Of a stretch of DNA of 64,000 nucleotides, positions 2,470 to 11,387 are shown piece after piece (the stretch's first letter is position 1; each line of letters begins with the position of its first letter). The DNA is taken from contig JAHPZE010000021.1 of NCBI GenBank assembly GCA_019058365.1, forward strand, positions 12,100 to 76,099, written 5' to 3'. The notes under the pieces were generated by a model, which ran no database searches, had not been told where the DNA came from, and saw nothing but the letters and a program-made list of their open reading frames with translations. Source of the stretch: Promethearchaeota archaeon. GTDB lineage: Archaea; Asgardarchaeota; Lokiarchaeia; Sigyniarchaeales; SOKP01. The translations under genes were made by a program, and so were the position numbers.

Positions 2470-4425
2470 ATGGAAGCAAAAAACGGAAATATTATTATTG
2501 ATTTTGAACCAATTTCAAGAAGAGTGCTTTTTTCAGATGATTACTCGCTTTATGAAATTCTTTCAGAATTAAACGTGCCAATAAGTTCGATATGTGGAGG
2601 TTTAGGGACCTGTGGAAAATGTAAGGTCCTAATTCAACGGGGTAAGGAGTATTTGAATAATCCCACTCCTTCTGAAAAAAAATTTTTAAGTAATAATGAA
2701 ATTGAAGATGGATGGCGTCTCGCTTGTCAAACAAAAATTGATATTAAAAAAAAAACATATCTTGAAACACTTCAAGTCCCACAATTTCGCGTATTTTTGC
2801 CCCGTGAACTTTTACTTGAAGATTTTAACATTTTAGTGTCAGGGATCAGTAAGGGAATTGAAATTAGACCAGCTATTACAAAGATTTTCATTGAAGTAAA
2901 AAAATCATCATTAAAGGAACCAATTGCAGATTTTGAAAGGATTGAATCAGCTCTTTTGTCTAAAAGTACGAATTTGAATAGAAATGATGAAATTAAGATA
3001 GATTTTAACGTTCTAAATGATATTCCGACTCTTCTAAGAGAAAATCAATACAAAATCACTTTAGTTTTATGGAATAATACTAATATTATCACTTGTGAGC
3101 CAGGTAATACTCTTGAAGAGAATTTTGGAATCGCTTTTGATATTGGGACTACCACAATTGTGGGGTATCTGATGAATTTGAATAACGGAAAAATTTATGC
3201 GGTTGATTCAAAATTGAATAGTCAAACTGCATATGGAGAGGATTTAATAACACGTTTAACATTTATAAAAGATAATCAAAAAAATCTTCAGAAATTAAAT
3301 TCTGCCGTAATAAATGATTTAAATGAAATAATTGCAAACGTATGTAATAAAGCAAATATTAAACCTTCTCAAATCTATGAAGCTAGTGTTGTAGGAAATT
3401 CTGTTATGCATCACATTTTTTTAGGATTAAACCCTGTTAATATAGGTTTAAGTCCATTTATTCCAGTCATTCAAAAAAATTTGAATATTAAAGCAAAAAA
3501 TTTAAATCTTAATATTTTAAAAAACGGAAATGTGTATACATCTCCATTAATTGCTGGTTTTGTTGGAGCCGATACTATAGGCGTTATTCTCTCGTCGCGT
3601 GTCTTTAATGAAAAAGAGCTTACTTTAGCTATTGATATAGGTACTAATGGCGAAATCATTGTAGGGAATCGTAAGATTCTGGCAGTAGGATCATGTGCTG
3701 CAGGTTCTGCTTTGGAAGGGGCTCATATTGCTGATGGAATGAGAGCTGCGGCAGGTGCAATTGATAAAATTAAAATTGATCCCAAGAATTTGGATGTATC
3801 CTATACTACAATCAAACATAAGAAACCAATAGGGATATGTGGCTCTGGATTGGTTGATGTAATAGCAGAGATGTTGAAATCTAAAATAATTACAAGAAGT
3901 GGTAATTTCAATAAAGAAATTATTAATCATGAAAGATTTATTAAAAACGATAAAAATGTAGAATTTATTGTGGCTAAAAATGAAGAAACATCTTTAGATA
4001 AGGACATAACGATTAGCCAAAACGATGTGAGACAAATCCAAATGGCAAAAGCTGCATTTTATGCTGGCGCAAAGATTATTCTGAATAATTTAAAGCGTAA
4101 TTTAAAAATTGAACAAGTCTTTTTAGCAGGCGCTTTTGGAAATTATATTAATGCTTATAATGCAAAATTTATAGGCATGATTCCAGATATTCATGATGAT
4201 AACATTTTTCAGATAGGCAATGCTGCTGGAATAGGAGCACAACACTGTTTATTGAATAAAGATTTGCGAAATAAAGCACAAACATTATTAAAGAAAATTC
4301 AATACATTGAAATTGCAGTAGATAAAAGCTTTCAAAAAGAATACGCTGAGGCAATGTACTTTCCTCATTTAAATCTTGATTATTTTCCAAGCTTAAAAGA
4401 ATATAAAGTAATCCCCAAAAGGTAA
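2470..4425 (+). CDS. ASKHA-domain reductive activator of corrinoid proteins (RACo/AcsV-like, DUF4445) with N-terminal 2Fe-2S domain
   Basis: CGGLGTCGKC...RLACQ 2Fe-2S motif; DIGTT, DIGTNGE, GICGSG and AGAFG ASKHA motifs; 651 aa. Confidence 0.9.
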   Translation: MEAKNGNIIIDFEPISRRVLFSDDYSLYEILSELNVPISSICGGLGTCGKCKVLIQRGKEYLNNPTPSEKKFLSNNEIEDGWRLACQTKIDIKKKTYLETLQVPQFRVFLPRELLLEDFNILVSGISKGIEIRPAITKIFIEVKKSSLKEPIADFERIESALLSKSTNLNRNDEIKIDFNVLNDIPTLLRENQYKITLVLWNNTNIITCEPGNTLEENFGIAFDIGTTTIVGYLMNLNNGKIYAVDSKLNSQTAYGEDLITRLTFIKDNQKNLQKLNSAVINDLNEIIANVCNKANIKPSQIYEASVVGNSVMHHIFLGLNPVNIGLSPFIPVIQKNLNIKAKNLNLNILKNGNVYTSPLIAGFVGADTIGVILSSRVFNEKELTLAIDIGTNGEIIVGNRKILAVGSCAAGSALEGAHIADGMRAAAGAIDKIKIDPKNLDVSYTTIKHKKPIGICGSGLVDVIAEMLKSKIITRSGNFNKEIINHERFIKNDKNVEFIVAKNEETSLDKDITISQNDVRQIQMAKAAFYAGAKIILNNLKRNLKIEQVFLAGAFGNYINAYNAKFIGMIPDIHDDNIFQIGNAAGIGAQHCLLNKDLRNKAQTLLKKIQYIEIAVDKSFQKEYAEAMYFPHLNLDYFPSLKEYKVIPKR

Positions 4426-4669: not shown

Positions 4670-5194
4670 ATGTCAAGTTTTAAACTAAAAGTATTATTAA
4701 CTGGCGCCGCTGCTGTGGGAAAGACTAGTCTTGTTCAGAGATTCATCAAAAACAGGTTCCAAGCAAATTATAAATTAACTGTTGGCGTAGATATTTTAAC
4801 TAAAGATGTAGAATTCAGACAAGGTGAAATAGCAACACTTTCTATATGGGATATTGGAGGACAACAGAGGTTTGAGTTTATCCGTAGTACATTTTACAAA
4901 GGAGCAGCTGGAGCTTTATTAGTCTTTGACTTAACTCGAGAACAGACATACACGGAAACAAGGAAATGGCTTACGGAGATTCGTCAATTCGCCGGTGAGA
5001 ACATTCCATTTGTTTTGATTGGGAATAAAGCAGATTTAATGGAAGATGTTGGCGTAGTAATTGATCGAGATGAAGCCCGTTCATTTGCAGAAAATGAGGG
5101 GAGTATTTATATAGAAACTTCTGCTAAGACTGGGATTAATGTTGATGAATCTTTTACAGAGTTAACCCGTCGAATAATTGACTCAAGAACTTAA
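4670..5194 (+). CDS. Rab-like small GTPase (Asgard eukaryotic signature protein)
   Basis: G1 GAAAVGKT, G3 WDIGGQ, G4 NKAD, G5 SAK; RabF-like motifs VGVDI, TLSIW, FYKGA, LVFDLT; no C-terminal Cys tail. Confidence 0.93.
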   Translation: MSSFKLKVLLTGAAAVGKTSLVQRFIKNRFQANYKLTVGVDILTKDVEFRQGEIATLSIWDIGGQQRFEFIRSTFYKGAAGALLVFDLTREQTYTETRKWLTEIRQFAGENIPFVLIGNKADLMEDVGVVIDRDEARSFAENEGSIYIETSAKTGINVDESFTELTRRIIDSRT

Positions 5195-5309: not shown

Positions 5310-6725
5310 TTAATTTGGACCTTCAAATTCCTTGTAAAGATCATCATGAATTATTTTTATTGCATCCTCTAATTTAGCTCTCTCAATAACTATTGACAAA
5401 TTTAACTCATCATGACTTTGTGAAATTGCTTTGACTTGTATGTTTTTTTTATCTAATGCGTTGAATATCTCTACCTTTGTCCTCGTTTCAAGTATTTTAA
5501 GACCTGTGATATTAATTACAGAAACATGCTCCCACTTAATTTTGAAAAATTCTGAAAAGAATTTTGAACTTTTCAAAGCGGCAATTGCGCGCTCTGAGTC
5601 TAATTCACTTATTATGAAGGAAGTACTTATTTCAGAGGAACTTTGAGCCACTAATGAAACGCTAATTCTATTTTTACTCATAACTCTGAATATTTTAGCA
5701 AGAACACCGGGTATATCAACCATGCTTCCAGAAATGATGGTTATGATTGTAACAAATTCAACAGCAGAAATCCCTTTAATATGTTCCTTATCAGTTATTT
5801 CTGAAATTTGTGTGAAGCTCTTTTCTAAAGGTTTTTCAAAGTTTCTTATTTCTAAAGGTATTTTGTCTTTTTCAATAGCTTCCAAACATTTGGGATGAAG
5901 GATTTTAGCTCCAAAACTAGCAATATGTTTAGCTTCATTATAATCTAAATTTTTTATAAGAGAAGAGTTGGGCACAAATTTGGGATTTATCGCTAATAAT
6001 CCATCAACATTTTTCCATAAAATAACTCTAATATTTTTATCATTTCCGATATCATACAGAGCTCGTGCTATAATAGTTGCTGTATAGTCAGATCCCCCTC
6101 TCCCTAAAGTGGTGATATAGCCAATTTTATTTCTACCAATAAAGCCAGTTAAACACACTATTGTATTTTTATTCGGATTTTCTAATAATGGAACTAACAT
6201 TCTTTTTATTCGGGAATTTGTTAAATCATACAATGGATAAGCATTATTAAACTCATCATTAGTTATAATTAATCTATTTGCAGGAATATATACAGAATCA
6301 ATCTCATTACTTAGAAGAAATTGATCTAATATATATGTAGATAAAATTTCTCCAAAACTTAATACAAAGTCTTTATAATAAGGTTCTAATCCAAATTCTT
6401 TAATATCTGCAAAAGTATCCTCTAATTCACTTAATCTATCATCGATCCAATCCCTTGCTTTAATATAATGCTCAGAATCTTCAGTGAATATTTGTTCAAT
6501 TATATCAATATGTCTCTTTTCTATTAATGCTATGTTATTATCTGTATCTTTATCCTTTTCTAACATATTTGCAGTTTTTAAAAGTAAATCTGTTATACCA
6601 GTCAAAGCGGAGACAACATATACTTTCTTTACTTTCTCATAAATATTTGTAATATTGAGAATTTTATTAAACGAATCTTTATCGTTTAAACAAGAACCTC
6701 CGAATTTCATAACGATTATCGGCAT
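5310..6725 (-). CDS. lysC: Aspartate kinase with C-terminal ACT domains
   Basis: MKFGGS, VVSA, TTLGRGGSDYTA, FGAKILHP; ACT-like PGVLAKIF...SSEISTSF. Confidence 0.92.
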   Translation of the reverse strand: MPIIVMKFGGSCLNDKDSFNKILNITNIYEKVKKVYVVSALTGITDLLLKTANMLEKDKDTDNNIALIEKRHIDIIEQIFTEDSEHYIKARDWIDDRLSELEDTFADIKEFGLEPYYKDFVLSFGEILSTYILDQFLLSNEIDSVYIPANRLIITNDEFNNAYPLYDLTNSRIKRMLVPLLENPNKNTIVCLTGFIGRNKIGYITTLGRGGSDYTATIIARALYDIGNDKNIRVILWKNVDGLLAINPKFVPNSSLIKNLDYNEAKHIASFGAKILHPKCLEAIEKDKIPLEIRNFEKPLEKSFTQISEITDKEHIKGISAVEFVTIITIISGSMVDIPGVLAKIFRVMSKNRISVSLVAQSSSEISTSFIISELDSERAIAALKSSKFFSEFFKIKWEHVSVINITGLKILETRTKVEIFNALDKKNIQVKAISQSHDELNLSIVIERAKLEDAIKIIHDDLYKEFEGPN

Positions 6726-6856: not shown

Positions 6857-7729
6857 ATGATCGATCTTCATCTACATTCATCTGCATCTGACGGTTCAGA
6901 TACTCCTTCACAATTAATAGAACACGCGCTAAAGTTTAAGCTAAAGGCGATTGCTATTACAGATCATGATACAATAGGAGGAATAGAGGAATTCTTGTCA
7001 TATGGAGAATTAAAGCAGATCATTGTAATTCCTGGTATAGAAGTTTCAATTAGACATGATCCTTTAAGGGAATTAATAGATGTTCATATTATAGGTTTGA
7101 ATATAGATTATTCTTCTACAAAATTGATCAATTCGATTAATGAACAGATTAAAGGACGATTAGAGCAAAAAAAAGCAATTTGTAGACGATTAAGGGATGA
7201 ATTTGGCTATAATATCTCGTTTGAAGACGTAAAAGCTATTGCTGGAAGCAAGATTATTGGACGCCCTCACATTGTAGAAATGTTAAGAAAAAATAACCCT
7301 AGAAAAGTTGAAGGAAAATCTACAAATGAATTATTCAAACTCATAAGTATTGGTGGCGCTGCTTATGTTAATAGAAAAGTTGAGTTAAACCTTGAAGAAT
7401 CTATTGAGTTAATTAAATCTGCTGGCGGAATTCCCATTTTAGCACATCCAGGAATTTATAAAATTTCAGATTGGATAGAATTTATAAAATTTTGTATTGA
7501 AGCAGGGATTGAAGGTATTGAAGTGGAATACACATATGCAAAAAATAGACCCTATTATGAGACAGATAAAGCAGATTGGGCTCAGAATTACTTTCCTGAT
7601 TACTTTCGGAAAATTGCGAATGATTTTAATCTTATTAAATCAGGAGGTTCAGATTATCATGGCGGTAAAAAGCATATTATGATGGGAGAAGCAAAAGTTC
7701 CTGATAGTTATTTAAAGAAATTTATTTAA
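6857..7729 (+). CDS. PHP-domain metal-dependent phosphoesterase (TrpH/YciV-like)
   Basis: DLHLHSSASDG, AITDHDT, GIEVS, GRPHI, LAHP, GGSDYHG. Confidence 0.92.
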   Translation: MIDLHLHSSASDGSDTPSQLIEHALKFKLKAIAITDHDTIGGIEEFLSYGELKQIIVIPGIEVSIRHDPLRELIDVHIIGLNIDYSSTKLINSINEQIKGRLEQKKAICRRLRDEFGYNISFEDVKAIAGSKIIGRPHIVEMLRKNNPRKVEGKSTNELFKLISIGGAAYVNRKVELNLEESIELIKSAGGIPILAHPGIYKISDWIEFIKFCIEAGIEGIEVEYTYAKNRPYYETDKADWAQNYFPDYFRKIANDFNLIKSGGSDYHGGKKHIMMGEAKVPDSYLKKFI

Positions 7730-8015: not shown

Positions 8016-9953
8016 CTAATCATTTAAAAGATTCTGCAATTCTTGAATTTGGCCATCAATTTTGTTCATTAATAAATCTATTTTCTCTTTCTTTTCTTGA
8101 AGTTCTTCTGATGTGATTTCCCCAGTGAGTTCCTTCATATCAAGATCTAATAACATCTTAGAAATATCTGCTTTCTTAATTTTCAATTCCAATAACGATT
8201 TTTTTAATTCTTCTATCTGTTTTATATCTAAAACTGTAGGTTTTTGTTCAACTTGGTTAGGAATCGGAGGAGTTATTACTGCTTTGGATTCAAGTGTAAT
8301 TTTTGATTTTGGAGGAGTTATTACTGCTTTGGGTTCAAGTGTAGTTTTTAGTGTTGGAGGAGTTTTAGACGGAGTTGGACTTATACTTGTCTTTTTTTCC
8401 ATTAATTTTAACGGCGATACTGATACAAGAGTTTTTGGCTCATCCGCATTTTCTACTAGACTAACCGGAGACATTTTCAATTTATCTTTTGCATCTTTTG
8501 GGACAAAATTTACTGATTTTGGTCTAGATTTTACCATAAAATCTTCTGGATTTAGTGTTAAACCAATTCCCTCTGGTTTTATTTCGGACTCTTTTGGTGG
8601 TTCAATTTCTTTAACCTTTTGAGTATTTACTTCAGTTACTTTTTCTTTATCATATAAAGTTGAAATTTCTGAAGGTCTTTTAATTTTGGGTGGTCCTATT
8701 GGTTTTTGTTCAGTTGGTAATTTTTGGGGAGTATTTAATGATTGCTCTTGGGGAGGTAATTGGGGAGGCAATTTGGGAGGCAATGGGGGCTCTGGTATTG
8801 CTGGAGTTGGAGGAGAATGCGCTTTTTCTAATTCCTTAAGTTTTTTATCCATTGTTGGAGGTTTTTGTTCTACAGGCTCAATAGATGTTGCCGGTGTGGG
8901 TTGTGGAGCGCCCACTGTATCTAACATATCTTTAATTTTTTGTGATTTATCAAAGAATTCTCTACCTAACGAATCATCTCCTAATTCTAAACATAAATCA
9001 CTAATTTTGTCAAATAAAAATGCTGCTTTATTAAAATCAGCGTCTTTAAGGGCTCTTACTGCTTCTTCAGTTAATTTATCTCTCTCAAGCAATGGCTTCA
9101 AGAGAGGTGAGACTTCTGCACTCATTTCTAAAATATCAGCAATTATTTGAATCATTTTATCTCGATTTTTAGGTTCTAATGCAATCATTGAGTATGCTTT
9201 TAATCCAAGTATTTTTTCAATTTGAACGGGATTCAAAGCTTCTTTTAAATCTTGTTTATTCCCTATTACTGCAGATTGAGCGTTAGGTGCTTGTTCTTTT
9301 ATTAATTCTAAAAAATATTTGCTCTTTTCAATGTTTTCTAATGAAGAGTCAGTAATTAAAAGAACCGCATCACTTCCCTTGATAAAATTGTTCCATAAAT
9401 AACTAAATTGCTCTTGTCCAGCGAAATCCCATAAATGAAAGTGTAATTTTCCAATTTTTATAGTGGCAATATCTCCCGTAATGGTTGGTATATGTTGCAT
9501 GGGAATTTCATCAGCTTTGATTAATTTCGTGATAGTAGTTTTTCCTACTCCCGAAAAACCTATTAGAGATATTTTAGGTCGTAAATTTCTATGGATTGCA
9601 TCTATTGTAGGATCAAAAACTTCAAATGTTTTTGCATCAAAACGATGCTGTAATATATCTTCAAATAAACTTAAAAATTCAGTTCTACATTTTTCCAATT
9701 CTTTTTTTATATTTTCAAATTTATCAGTCAAACCTGTTACAAATAAAAAAATAAGCTTAGTATCGTTATCTGTGATGTAAGATATTCTAAATTTATAATA
9801 ATCGTGAAATGCTATCTTGGATTCAGTTTTAATCAAAGCTTCATTAATGATATCTTCAACTAGAAGATTTAATACTTCTTGTTTTAGGGCTTTTCCAAAA
9901 TGTCTATAATATAAAAGTTCATTGCTTCTGTACACAAATACCTGTCTTAAAAT
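8016..9953 (-). CDS. Longin-like domain + Arf/Rag-like small GTPase + helical bundle + proline-rich region + C-terminal coiled-coil hairpin
   Basis: GFSGVGKT, WDFAGQ, NKQD; N-terminal about 120 aa beta/alpha longin-like pattern; PPTPAIPEPPLPPKLPPQLPP; C-terminal heptads. ORF track start is GTG 9935; the frame extends to ATT 9953, 6 nt after GGTGA (start uncertain). Confidence 0.85.
   Translation of the reverse strand: MLRQVFVYRSNELLYYRHFGKALKQEVLNLLVEDIINEALIKTESKIAFHDYYKFRISYITDNDTKLIFLFVTGLTDKFENIKKELEKCRTEFLSLFEDILQHRFDAKTFEVFDPTIDAIHRNLRPKISLIGFSGVGKTTITKLIKADEIPMQHIPTITGDIATIKIGKLHFHLWDFAGQEQFSYLWNNFIKGSDAVLLITDSSLENIEKSKYFLELIKEQAPNAQSAVIGNKQDLKEALNPVQIEKILGLKAYSMIALEPKNRDKMIQIIADILEMSAEVSPLLKPLLERDKLTEEAVRALKDADFNKAAFLFDKISDLCLELGDDSLGREFFDKSQKIKDMLDTVGAPQPTPATSIEPVEQKPPTMDKKLKELEKAHSPPTPAIPEPPLPPKLPPQLPPQEQSLNTPQKLPTEQKPIGPPKIKRPSEISTLYDKEKVTEVNTQKVKEIEPPKESEIKPEGIGLTLNPEDFMVKSRPKSVNFVPKDAKDKLKMSPVSLVENADEPKTLVSVSPLKLMEKKTSISPTPSKTPPTLKTTLEPKAVITPPKSKITLESKAVITPPIPNQVEQKPTVLDIKQIEELKKSLLELKIKKADISKMLLDLDMKELTGEITSEELQEKKEKIDLLMNKIDGQIQELQNLLND
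8266..8364. repeat. 45-bp tandem repeat (about 2.2 copies) encoding TLE(P/S)KAVITPP units
   Basis: ggaggagttattactgctttgg(a/g)ttcaagtgta at 8266 and 8311; third ggaggagtt at 8356. Confidence 0.9.
8751..8786. repeat. 12-bp tandem repeat x3 encoding xLPP units (PLPP-KLPP-QLPP)
   Basis: gggaggtaattg / gggaggcaattt / gggaggcaatgg. Confidence 0.85.
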
Positions 9954-9993
9954 AATCGTTCACCATGATTTATAAAATTATACTTAATACAAC

Positions 9994-10488
9994 TTAACTT
10001 GAAATGTGTTTAACTAAATCCTTTATAATTGAATATTTATCTTTTCTAATTTTTTCGTCTTCTAAGGTTTCTTCAATTTTTGAGATTTCTTTTGAAAAGT
10101 CAAAAACTGAAAAACTTTTAACTTCCTCTTCTGTTGTTATATTTACACTCAACTTCTTTAAAAAAACACTAACACTTGGCATAAACTTTGCTAAATTTAC
10201 ATTTAAATCTAATTTTGAGATAAGGATTAATTCCTTGCTAAATGTAAACAGATAATTGTACTTTTCTGATTCTAACGCGAAGGAGTTTATCTTATTTAAA
10301 CTTAGTGCATTCGCAATTTCTTTAGAATTGGAAATTAAGGATAATATCCCATGGGGAATAATTCTTCCTTTCGCAAACTCCTTGATTAACGATCCCAATA
10401 TAATTCCATACTTATTTGCTATAGCACATTCAGCATTTAAGTCAGACTTTAATTGAGAGATTATTTCCTCATATTTAACTTGACTCAT
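9994..10488 (-). CDS. Roadblock/LAMTOR (MglB-like) fold protein with C-terminal helical extension
   Basis: Helix-beta-beta (ECAIANKYGIILGS)-helix-beta-beta-beta-helix pattern; directly upstream of and co-oriented with a small GTPase. Confidence 0.65.
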   Translation of the reverse strand: MSQVKYEEIISQLKSDLNAECAIANKYGIILGSLIKEFAKGRIIPHGILSLISNSKEIANALSLNKINSFALESEKYNYLFTFSKELILISKLDLNVNLAKFMPSVSVFLKKLSVNITTEEEVKSFSVFDFSKEISKIEETLEDEKIRKDKYSIIKDLVKHISS

Positions 10489-10601
10489 ATTTAAGGGAAA
10501 ATGTTTTTACATAAATAATGAAAAACTATTTATTTATATTTGTTTAGTTATTAGAAACATAATATTACTAAAATTGTAACAATTTTGCTTATTAATTTGA
10601 T

Positions 10602-11387
10602 TTGAAAACTTACAAAACGCGTTTTTTGGAAAAAGAATCTGATATTACAATTATATCTGAATCAAAGAAGGCAATTATACGTGCGAAAAAGAGTTTTTAT
10701 TTCCACCGAAAGAATTTAGAGAAATATGTACTAAAAGATAACCAGTTTCTAAATTCTTTTTCTCCACTTAAAATAAATACAAATTTTAAAATCATTAAAA
10801 TTATGGCTGAAGTAGCAGAGATATGTGATGTAGGACCTATGGCTGCGGTAGCTGGGGCGTTGGCAGATTTAATGCTTGAAACAATGAAATCTAAAGATCC
10901 TGATTATATACCTTCCAAAATTGCTTTAGTTGAAAATGGAGGAGAAATTGCAATTGATTCCAAAAAACCAATAACTATCGCATTATATGCAGGCGAAAAT
11001 GAATTGAATCTTAATTTAGGTTTTTTAGTTAAAGAAAGCGATTGTCCTCTGGGGATTGGAACAAGCTCCGCAACAGTGGGTCATGCAATTAGCTTAGGAC
11101 AAGCCGATGCGGTTACAATCTTTGCAAAAAATGCTGCTCTAGCAGATGCAGCAGCAACAAAAATATGCAATTTAGTTAAAGGAATAGATATTGAGAAATC
11201 CATAAAAAAGGGATTAGATGCTGTAGATGATATTGACGGGCTCATAGGTGCATTTATATCTAGAGAAAATAAAGTTGGTCAGACAGGAAAACTCCCTCAA
11301 CTAGTAAAGATTGAAGGAGATAAACAAAAAATTTTGAATGAAAAGCAGGACATTGAATTTCCAGGTGACTATGAGATATTTAAATAA
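10602..11387 (+). CDS. UPF0280 family protein (ApbE superfamily)
   Basis: VGPMAAVAGALAD, ENGGEIA, GIGTSSATVGHAISLGQADAVT, ADAAAT. Confidence 0.9.
   Translation: MKTYKTRFLEKESDITIISESKKAIIRAKKSFYFHRKNLEKYVLKDNQFLNSFSPLKINTNFKIIKIMAEVAEICDVGPMAAVAGALADLMLETMKSKDPDYIPSKIALVENGGEIAIDSKKPITIALYAGENELNLNLGFLVKESDCPLGIGTSSATVGHAISLGQADAVTIFAKNAALADAAATKICNLVKGIDIEKSIKKGLDAVDDIDGLIGAFISRENKVGQTGKLPQLVKIEGDKQKILNEKQDIEFPGDYEIFK

Follow-up and report, generated by a model that had tools for sequence, protein, structure and literature searches.

Two adjacent genes on the minus strand of a Promethearchaeota archaeon encode a stand-alone roadblock protein and, downstream of it, a GTPase in which a longin domain, an Arf-like (ArfL) G domain, a three-helix unit, a long linker and a C-terminal helical hairpin follow one another. 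They lie in a stretch of 64,000 nucleotides (nt) of contig JAHPZE010000021.1 (assembly GCA_019058365.1, positions 12,100 to 76,099), hereafter the window, whose numbering is used throughout. The pair is a real, conserved and uncharacterised two-gene module built from known parts. As to its function, the sequence and fold comparisons give about an even chance that the roadblock protein acts as a non-catalytic platform partner of the GTPase, and that the hairpin tethers the GTPase to a partner or polymer. The two genes and their parts are:

9994..10488, minus strand: stand-alone roadblock gene, 164 amino acids (open reading frame, AlphaFold2 model, fold search, profile alignment)
10144..10488, minus strand: roadblock domain, residues 1-115 (AlphaFold2 model and fold matches)
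9997..10143, minus strand: C-terminal extension of the roadblock protein, residues 116-164, two helices (orthologue alignment and AlphaFold2)
8016..9953, minus strand: longin-ArfL GTPase gene, 645 amino acids, probable ATT start (open reading frame, orthologue starts)
9582..9953, minus strand: longin domain, residues 1-124 (predicted topology and fold search)
9111..9581, minus strand: ArfL G domain, residues 125-281 (Pfam, conservation)
8916..9098, minus strand: three-helix unit that looks TPR-like, residues 286-346 (model and weak TPR_8 hits)
8226..8915, minus strand: disordered linker rich in Pro, Glu and Lys, residues 347-576 (predicted local distance difference test, pLDDT, mostly <50)
8466..8579, minus strand: conserved motif of about 38 amino acids within the linker (consensus of the orthologue alignment)
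8022..8225, minus strand: two-helix hairpin of CdvA/steadiness-box type, residues 577-644 (model, fold search, Pfam, profile)

An earlier reading of this DNA (the original prediction) had placed a 164-amino-acid gene about 40 nt upstream of, and co-oriented with, a GTPase of about 645 amino acids, and had set a roadblock fold in the small protein and conservation of the pair among its tests, neither of which went against it. The arrangement holds, with a 40-nt gap between the gene at 9994-10488 and the ATT start, and in our own tally across three families the tailed GTPase stands directly downstream of the roadblock gene in 79 of the 84 roadblock-bearing Lokiarchaeales-type genomes, although these genomes are related and the adjacency counts are therefore not independent events. 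Gaps in the adjacent pairs range from 12 to 315 nt; in four of the 84 genomes the GTPase lies elsewhere and in one the sequence ends at a contig edge. Flanking genes differ from family to family, and in Promethearchaeum syntrophicum MK-D1 the pair is an isolated unit because both of its neighbours lie on the opposite strand. At high score the homologue search found the roadblock family only within the order, while 37 of the 40 high-quality genomes examined in the class have the hairpin, and with it the tailed GTPase, mostly as a single copy.

The Pfam search gave no hit for the 164-amino-acid protein, a direct match to Robl_LC7 included. Its AlphaFold2 model (mean pLDDT 79) has roadblock topology over residues 1-115, in the order helix, two strands, helix, three strands, helix that defines the full-type fold. 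The best fold match was the MK-D1 roadblock 9jue (Z 13.0, root-mean-square deviation, rmsd, 2.6, 115 residues), with further Asgard roadblocks among the best matches and MglB of Myxococcus xanthus (6hjm) at Z 12.6, and canonical roadblocks encoded in the same genome aligned with the family profile almost gap-free (E 2e-7 and 7e-6). Two differences set the protein apart from these canonical roadblocks, namely a conserved C-terminal extension and the loss of the small-residue motif of helix 2. The extension, of about 45-50 amino acids, is kept in all 21 aligned roadblock orthologues, and its helices (residues 132-144 and 152-163) are modelled at pLDDT 55-73. The orthologue alignment revealed no conserved Arg anywhere in the roadblock protein, and its conserved residues concentrate in the first hairpin and the following loop.

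This concentration also favours a reading in which the small protein would be a ligand sensor, using its fold in the manner of GAF domains or CodY to relay a metabolite signal to the GTPase. GAF domains reach Z 10-11 in the fold search (CodY 10.9), and weak CodY Pfam hits were obtained for 7 of 21 orthologues (best E 0.005). Roadblocks nevertheless rank above them at Z 12-13, and the profile fits canonical roadblocks nearly without gaps; we consider a sensor decidedly unlikely. The idea that the protein is a Rag C-terminal domain that has lost its GTPase was unsupported (profile probability 0.12%).

In the GTPase, the N-terminus is predicted at pLDDT about 80-89 to run through two strands, a helix, three strands and two helices, as a longin domain does, and the fold search matched it to the longin of VAMP7 (Z 14.5), Sec22 (14.2), synbindin (14.0) and SRX (12.0). 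Prediction and fold search thus agree with the longin N-terminus and the roadblock fold that had been proposed from the sequence. Unlike eukaryotic Arf and Asgard ArfR, the GTPase has no amphipathic membrane helix before its G domain. The G motifs quoted in the original prediction are all present, with G1 at residues 132-139, PTIT at 156-159, WDFAGQ at 175-180, NKQD at 232-235 and SMIA at 255-258; the last, described there as an atypical G5, is only mildly so, as its Ala is invariant in 32 of 32 orthologues. Across the same 32 sequences G1-G5, the switch-I Thr and the switch-II Gln are invariant or nearly so, and mean identity among orthologues is 84% for the G domain (74-78% across families), 61% for the longin domain and 24% for the linker. 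Confidence in the model of the G domain is low, and our structural arguments do not rest on it. Pfam scores it at 77 bits as Arf versus 25 bits as Gtr1_RagA; Rag-type genes of the same genome reach 72-80 bits on Gtr1_RagA. Its ArfL class is taken from orthology and the published assignment of the MK-D1 orthologue (by synteny and tree) WP_147664160.1, which was placed in ArfL by the tree of an Arf-family survey (bioRxiv 10.1101/2024.02.28.582541).

The MglA-MglB system of Myxococcus and Thermus resembles the pair in having a roadblock gene adjacent to and co-oriented with a small GTPase gene, and in the roadblock fold itself (Z 12.6). The C-terminal helices of the roadblock protein also recall the helical extension of M. 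xanthus MglB. In an MglB-type mechanism, a roadblock homodimer would act as a GTPase-activating protein (GAP), turning the GTPase off by bringing catalytic residues of the GTPase itself into place; in favour are the high rank of MglB in the fold search, a gene order that resembles mglBA and the invariant switch-II Gln. MglB, however, acts by positioning Arg53 of MglA, which precedes the switch-I Thr (PMC3199381), and the equivalent residue is Pro156 in 32 of 32 orthologues. With no conserved Arg on the roadblock protein and the invariant His154 of switch I as the only candidate substitute, such a GAP seems very improbable. The GTPase differs further from MglA in its ArfL G domain, which has no intrinsic switch-I Arg, and in the fused longin domain, TPR-like unit, linker and hairpin.

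In the orthologue alignment, residues 60-69 of the longin domain, in the loop between strands 4 and 5, are variable and include no conserved Arg; this loop is where the FLCN, NPRL2 and SMCR8 GAPs carry their arginine finger. Because the MglA-type Arg is absent and neither the roadblock protein nor this longin loop has a conserved Arg, we favour a platform or allosteric role for the roadblock protein. Dimers of roadblock and longin domains are established non-catalytic GTPase platforms (PMC3747258). Under the platform reading, Lokiarchaeales-type Asgard archaea would have inherited the two genes vertically as a co-expressed module. A working GTP switch would be provided by the ArfL G domain, whose motifs are intact. 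The roadblock protein would be its dedicated non-catalytic partner and would bind the core of longin and G domain, whether as a dimer of roadblocks or paired by its edge with the longin of the GTPase itself. The resulting platform could position the G domain or bias its nucleotide state allosterically, possibly with a contribution from the extra C-terminal helices of the roadblock protein, and an arginine-finger GAP would be supplied from elsewhere. As there is no amphipathic N-terminal helix, the GTPase would probably be localised through protein contacts, with the terminal hairpin pairing with itself or with a similar hairpin and the linker of 140-355 amino acids serving as a leash.

In Rag with Ragulator or EGO, likewise, the GTPase carries a fused domain of roadblock/longin type, and a separate roadblock is the probable non-catalytic platform. 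The difference is that the Rag roadblock is C-terminal, whereas here the longin is N-terminal and a helical unit follows the G domain; Pfam also favours Arf by 52 bits, and the pair has neither a second GTPase nor a membrane anchor. SRX/SR-beta and TRAPP C1/C4 share the combination of a longin fold (SRX Z 12.0, synbindin 14.0) with an Arf-like or small GTPase, but here a single polypeptide holds both longin and GTPase, and ArfL reportedly has no direct relationship to eukaryotic Arf or SR-beta (bioRxiv 10.1101/2024.02.28.582541). The original label of a Rag- or MglAB-like switch is therefore a loose fit, sound in gene adjacency and fold and misplaced in that the G domain is ArfL and not of Rag or MglA type, with no MglA-type Arg.

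Several points weigh against the platform partnership, in addition to the relatedness of the genomes already mentioned. Gene linkage is the sole evidence that the two proteins are physical partners. The small-residue motif of helix 2, a helix that in MglB forms the GTPase-binding face (PMC3199381), is replaced in this roadblock family by variable, bulkier residues. Some MK-D1 longin-GTPases have been modelled as longin homodimers (Tran et al., PMC10933270), an arrangement that, if it held here, would give the roadblock another role. About 20 tailless paralogues of the GTPase have no Rag-type or roadblock-bearing neighbour. Finally, the genomes G010, G011, G017 and G232 hold both genes, but apart; the separated roadblocks are intact and 79-83% identical, and since the four GTPases fall in one clade the separations probably stem from one rearrangement. 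The description of the switch as self-contained is weakened both by these four genomes and by the want of a conserved Arg finger on the roadblock protein and the longin loop. Regulation by the roadblock protein and the recruitment of effectors through the tail, also part of the original prediction, stay at the level of proposals. A complex prediction with two roadblocks, GTPase residues 1-348, GTP and Mg (tail omitted) scored 0.00, with the mark at 0.32, and carries no weight either way.

The separations are also what would be expected if the genes were merely co-regulated in one pathway, their products not binding directly and each working with other roadblock or longin proteins. Dozens of such proteins are present in each Asgard genome (PMC4917890), four genomes tolerate the separation with the roadblock still 79-83% identical, and the helix 2 surface is poorly conserved. 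Yet linkage within 12-315 nt has been kept across three families despite differing flanks, and the taxonomic ranges of the two genes match, so that co-regulation without contact appears somewhat unlikely. An RNA run for the MK-D1 locus gave long contigs that span both genes together with the opposite-strand neighbours, and co-transcription is not readable from it.

Weak TPR_8 matches to the three-helix unit were obtained for 24 of the 43 homologues, the best at E 4.7e-5; its profile probability against the MIT domain of Vps4 is 2.2%, equal to the reversed control, and PF04212 gave 0 matches (the unit's own fold was not searched separately). An MIT identity is thus unsupported by either comparison, and the unit looks TPR-like rather than MIT-like. 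Feature searches of the ESM Atlas with the hairpin and three-helix unit gave no usable match, and a shape search there returned only generic Asgard GTPase clusters. The linker spans 142-355 amino acids with 6-34% Pro across 33 orthologues. At 20% Pro the window's protein does have the Pro-rich linker that had been described, but polyproline is not a conserved property, and a polyproline or profilin-ligand role was set aside since in some orthologues Pro makes up 6-9% and PPP is absent. The core of the 38-residue linker motif is present in 28 of 28 same-family rows of the alignment and in 0 of 5 rows from other families, and the motif is a candidate docking site. Orthologue comparison showed no conserved P(S/T)AP motif.

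At its C-terminus the protein is helical, as predicted, but forms a two-helix hairpin instead of the coiled coil first suggested. [quoted passage not shown] Pfam CdvA (PF18822) matches 10 of 34 orthologue hairpins (best E 1.5e-6), one of them reaching 29 bits where the cut-off is 30, and an unbiased CdvA genome search recovered one orthologue's tail at E 2.3e-6. The hairpin profile matches Asgard CdvA-like hairpins at 65% (reversed control 1.6%). A lipoate-ligase Pfam hit on the hairpin was treated as a chance helical match. We read the similarity to CdvA as a family resemblance that falls short of proving a role with ESCRT.

Such a role would have the hairpin couple the switch to ESCRT-I/CdvA-type assemblies, making the module a regulator of membrane remodelling or division, and would be compatible with the platform partnership. 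The hairpin is CdvA-like by structure, Pfam and profile; docking to ESCRT-I has been proposed for Asgard multidomain proteins with hairpins of this kind (PMC11188069), and CdvA polymerisation runs through its helical domain (PMC12818579). Against this, the match to S. islandicus CdvA (9s9g, rmsd 1.2 over 67 residues) has a Z of 10.4, which is below the level that the fold-search tool trusts for helical parts and barely above the 10.3 of an unrelated oligosaccharyltransferase domain. Asgard Vps23-type steadiness boxes (PF09454 type) match the profile at a negligible 1.8%, and SHOCT and GvpG models match the same hairpin turn. A P(S/T)AP motif is not conserved, the profile comparison gave the three-helix unit no MIT likeness and no ESCRT gene was recognised in a by-eye reading of the pair's neighbours; we regard the coupling as unlikely. 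Improbable, too, is its fuller form, an essential Lokiarchaeal switch in which roadblock and longin would build a mixed platform and the CdvA-like hairpin would tether it to ESCRT-I/CdvA-type assemblies. If true, that switch would tie small-GTPase signalling directly to ESCRT membrane remodelling in archaea.

The MK-D1 orthologue WP_147664160.1 has the same domain order, belongs to the same gene pair, in which the upstream roadblock has 171 amino acids, and is 47% identical overall. Tran et al. 2024 list it as 'LGX', for 'longin-GTPase-unknown' (PMC10933270), and longin-Arf-like fusions were already on record for Loki in 2016, with five such fusions summarised (PMC4917890). The fusion of longin and GTPase, which the original prediction did not recognise as characterised, was thus already catalogued; it is the tail and the pairing that are undescribed in the literature found. 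In the searched text of the ArfL and LGX accounts, the C-terminal part is unassigned and the adjacent roadblock unmentioned (PMC10933270; bioRxiv 10.1101/2024.02.28.582541). No paper describing either was found, many subscription papers lying outside the search, and an accession search of main texts came back empty. A separate roadblock-Rab-DENN operon has been described (10.1101/2020.10.19.343400), as have hairpin-bearing Asgard multidomain proteins in general terms (PMC11188069).

For Asgard small GTPases, native regulators have yet to be established (PMC11914678). Matching regulators to GTPases is hard because the genes are rarely linked, and MK-D1 GTPase genes are generally not in operons with roadblock or longin genes, according to Tran et al. 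(PMC10933270). The pair is a conserved exception in a cultured organism and offers one defined GTPase-roadblock pair open to testing, and it suggests what the tail of this near-universal Lokiarchaeal GTPase, so far unassigned, may be. Since ArfL is confined to Asgard archaea and reportedly not the ancestor of eukaryotic Arfs (bioRxiv 10.1101/2024.02.28.582541), the pair would tell more about the biology of Asgard cells and the general platform principle than about eukaryotic ancestry in a direct sense.

The length of the GTPase depends on its start codon, which is preceded by one further element:

9960..9964, minus strand: GGTGA ribosome-binding motif of the GTPase gene (sequence)

From the first standard start, GTG at 9935, the protein would have 639 amino acids. 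The 645-residue form begins at an ATT (9951-9953) that lies 6 nt behind GGTGA and at whose alignment column ATG is found in orthologues, and this longer start completes the first longin strand. In the window's family (30 of 38 orthologues) the start codons are ATT in 17, ATA in 9, ATC in 1 and ATG in 3, and a Shine-Dalgarno-like motif precedes all 27 of the near-cognate starts (ATT, ATA or ATC); orthologues of the other two families start with ATG or GTG. On this evidence, 645 amino acids is very probably the correct length, as the original prediction had it, and the database entries of the cluster that have 624 and 639 residues are likely to be truncated forms.

Tailless paralogues of the GTPase were seen only in the window's family. 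In a quick tree with unresolved root they form a separate clade (97 in the Shimodaira-Hasegawa-like approximate likelihood ratio test, SH-aLRT), and the roadblock-linked long form groups by genus. Sixteen of their genes lie directly behind a Rag-type GTPase gene, including both copies of this genome (L096:540-3397 and L097:2001-4041, on its contigs C36 and C33), and a Rag-ArfL module is possible; given the stand-alone copies, a roadblock-bearing gene in front of every paralogue was rejected. On C36, a 269-amino-acid gene that is longin-like by eye precedes the Rag gene. A fusion gene of 687 amino acids (L094:945-3005, L095:698-2789) joins a longin, a divergent ArfL, a helical unit, a roadblock-like part and a Rab-like GTPase; in G017 and G011 it is oriented convergently with the roadblock gene that stands apart from its GTPase. 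Given the 16 Rag-linked paralogues and this fusion, the GTPase family recurs with roadblock-type partners, a point in favour of the platform reading.

Some genomes show rearranged copies. In G011 and G232 (L102:3476-7449; L240) the tailed GTPase is present twice in tandem, the copies belonging to different clades, and in G011 a roadblock remnant of 41 codons separates them; this suggests recombination between lineages. In G006 (L101:3475-5346, a gapped scaffold) the N-terminal 206 residues of the GTPase are replaced by unrelated sequence, through either misassembly or rearrangement. Second tailed copies of about 490 amino acids with a different upstream gene occur in two other families (L219 and L220, from G039 and G026). 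No roadblock gene turned up in two incomplete genomes of the genus in which the GTPase is present, at least in part.

Upstream of the roadblock gene lies a final element of the locus:

10529..10541, minus strand: TATA-like box 5' of the roadblock gene (TATAAATAA core)

In a count made by eye, 26 of the 30 loci of the window's family have the TATAAATAA core, about 40-50 nt upstream of the roadblock gene, and we infer that the box is a promoter element. It may serve both the roadblock gene and a divergent conserved hypothetical gene (10602-11387, PRK04334-like below cut-off), its neighbour in most genomes of the family, which would then have the promoter in common with it. On the other side of the pair, a giant helical-repeat protein with weak MIT- and TPR-like hits (3-2279, running past the window; 2127-amino-acid frame) is syntenic with the locus in several genomes of the genus. 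A stand-alone Rab-like small GTPase without a C-terminal Cys (4670-5194) lies near the pair in several relatives, though not in all families. An AcsV-like corrinoid activation protein (2470-4425), an aspartate kinase (5310-6725) and a PHP-family hydrolase (6857-7729) are ordinary neighbours.

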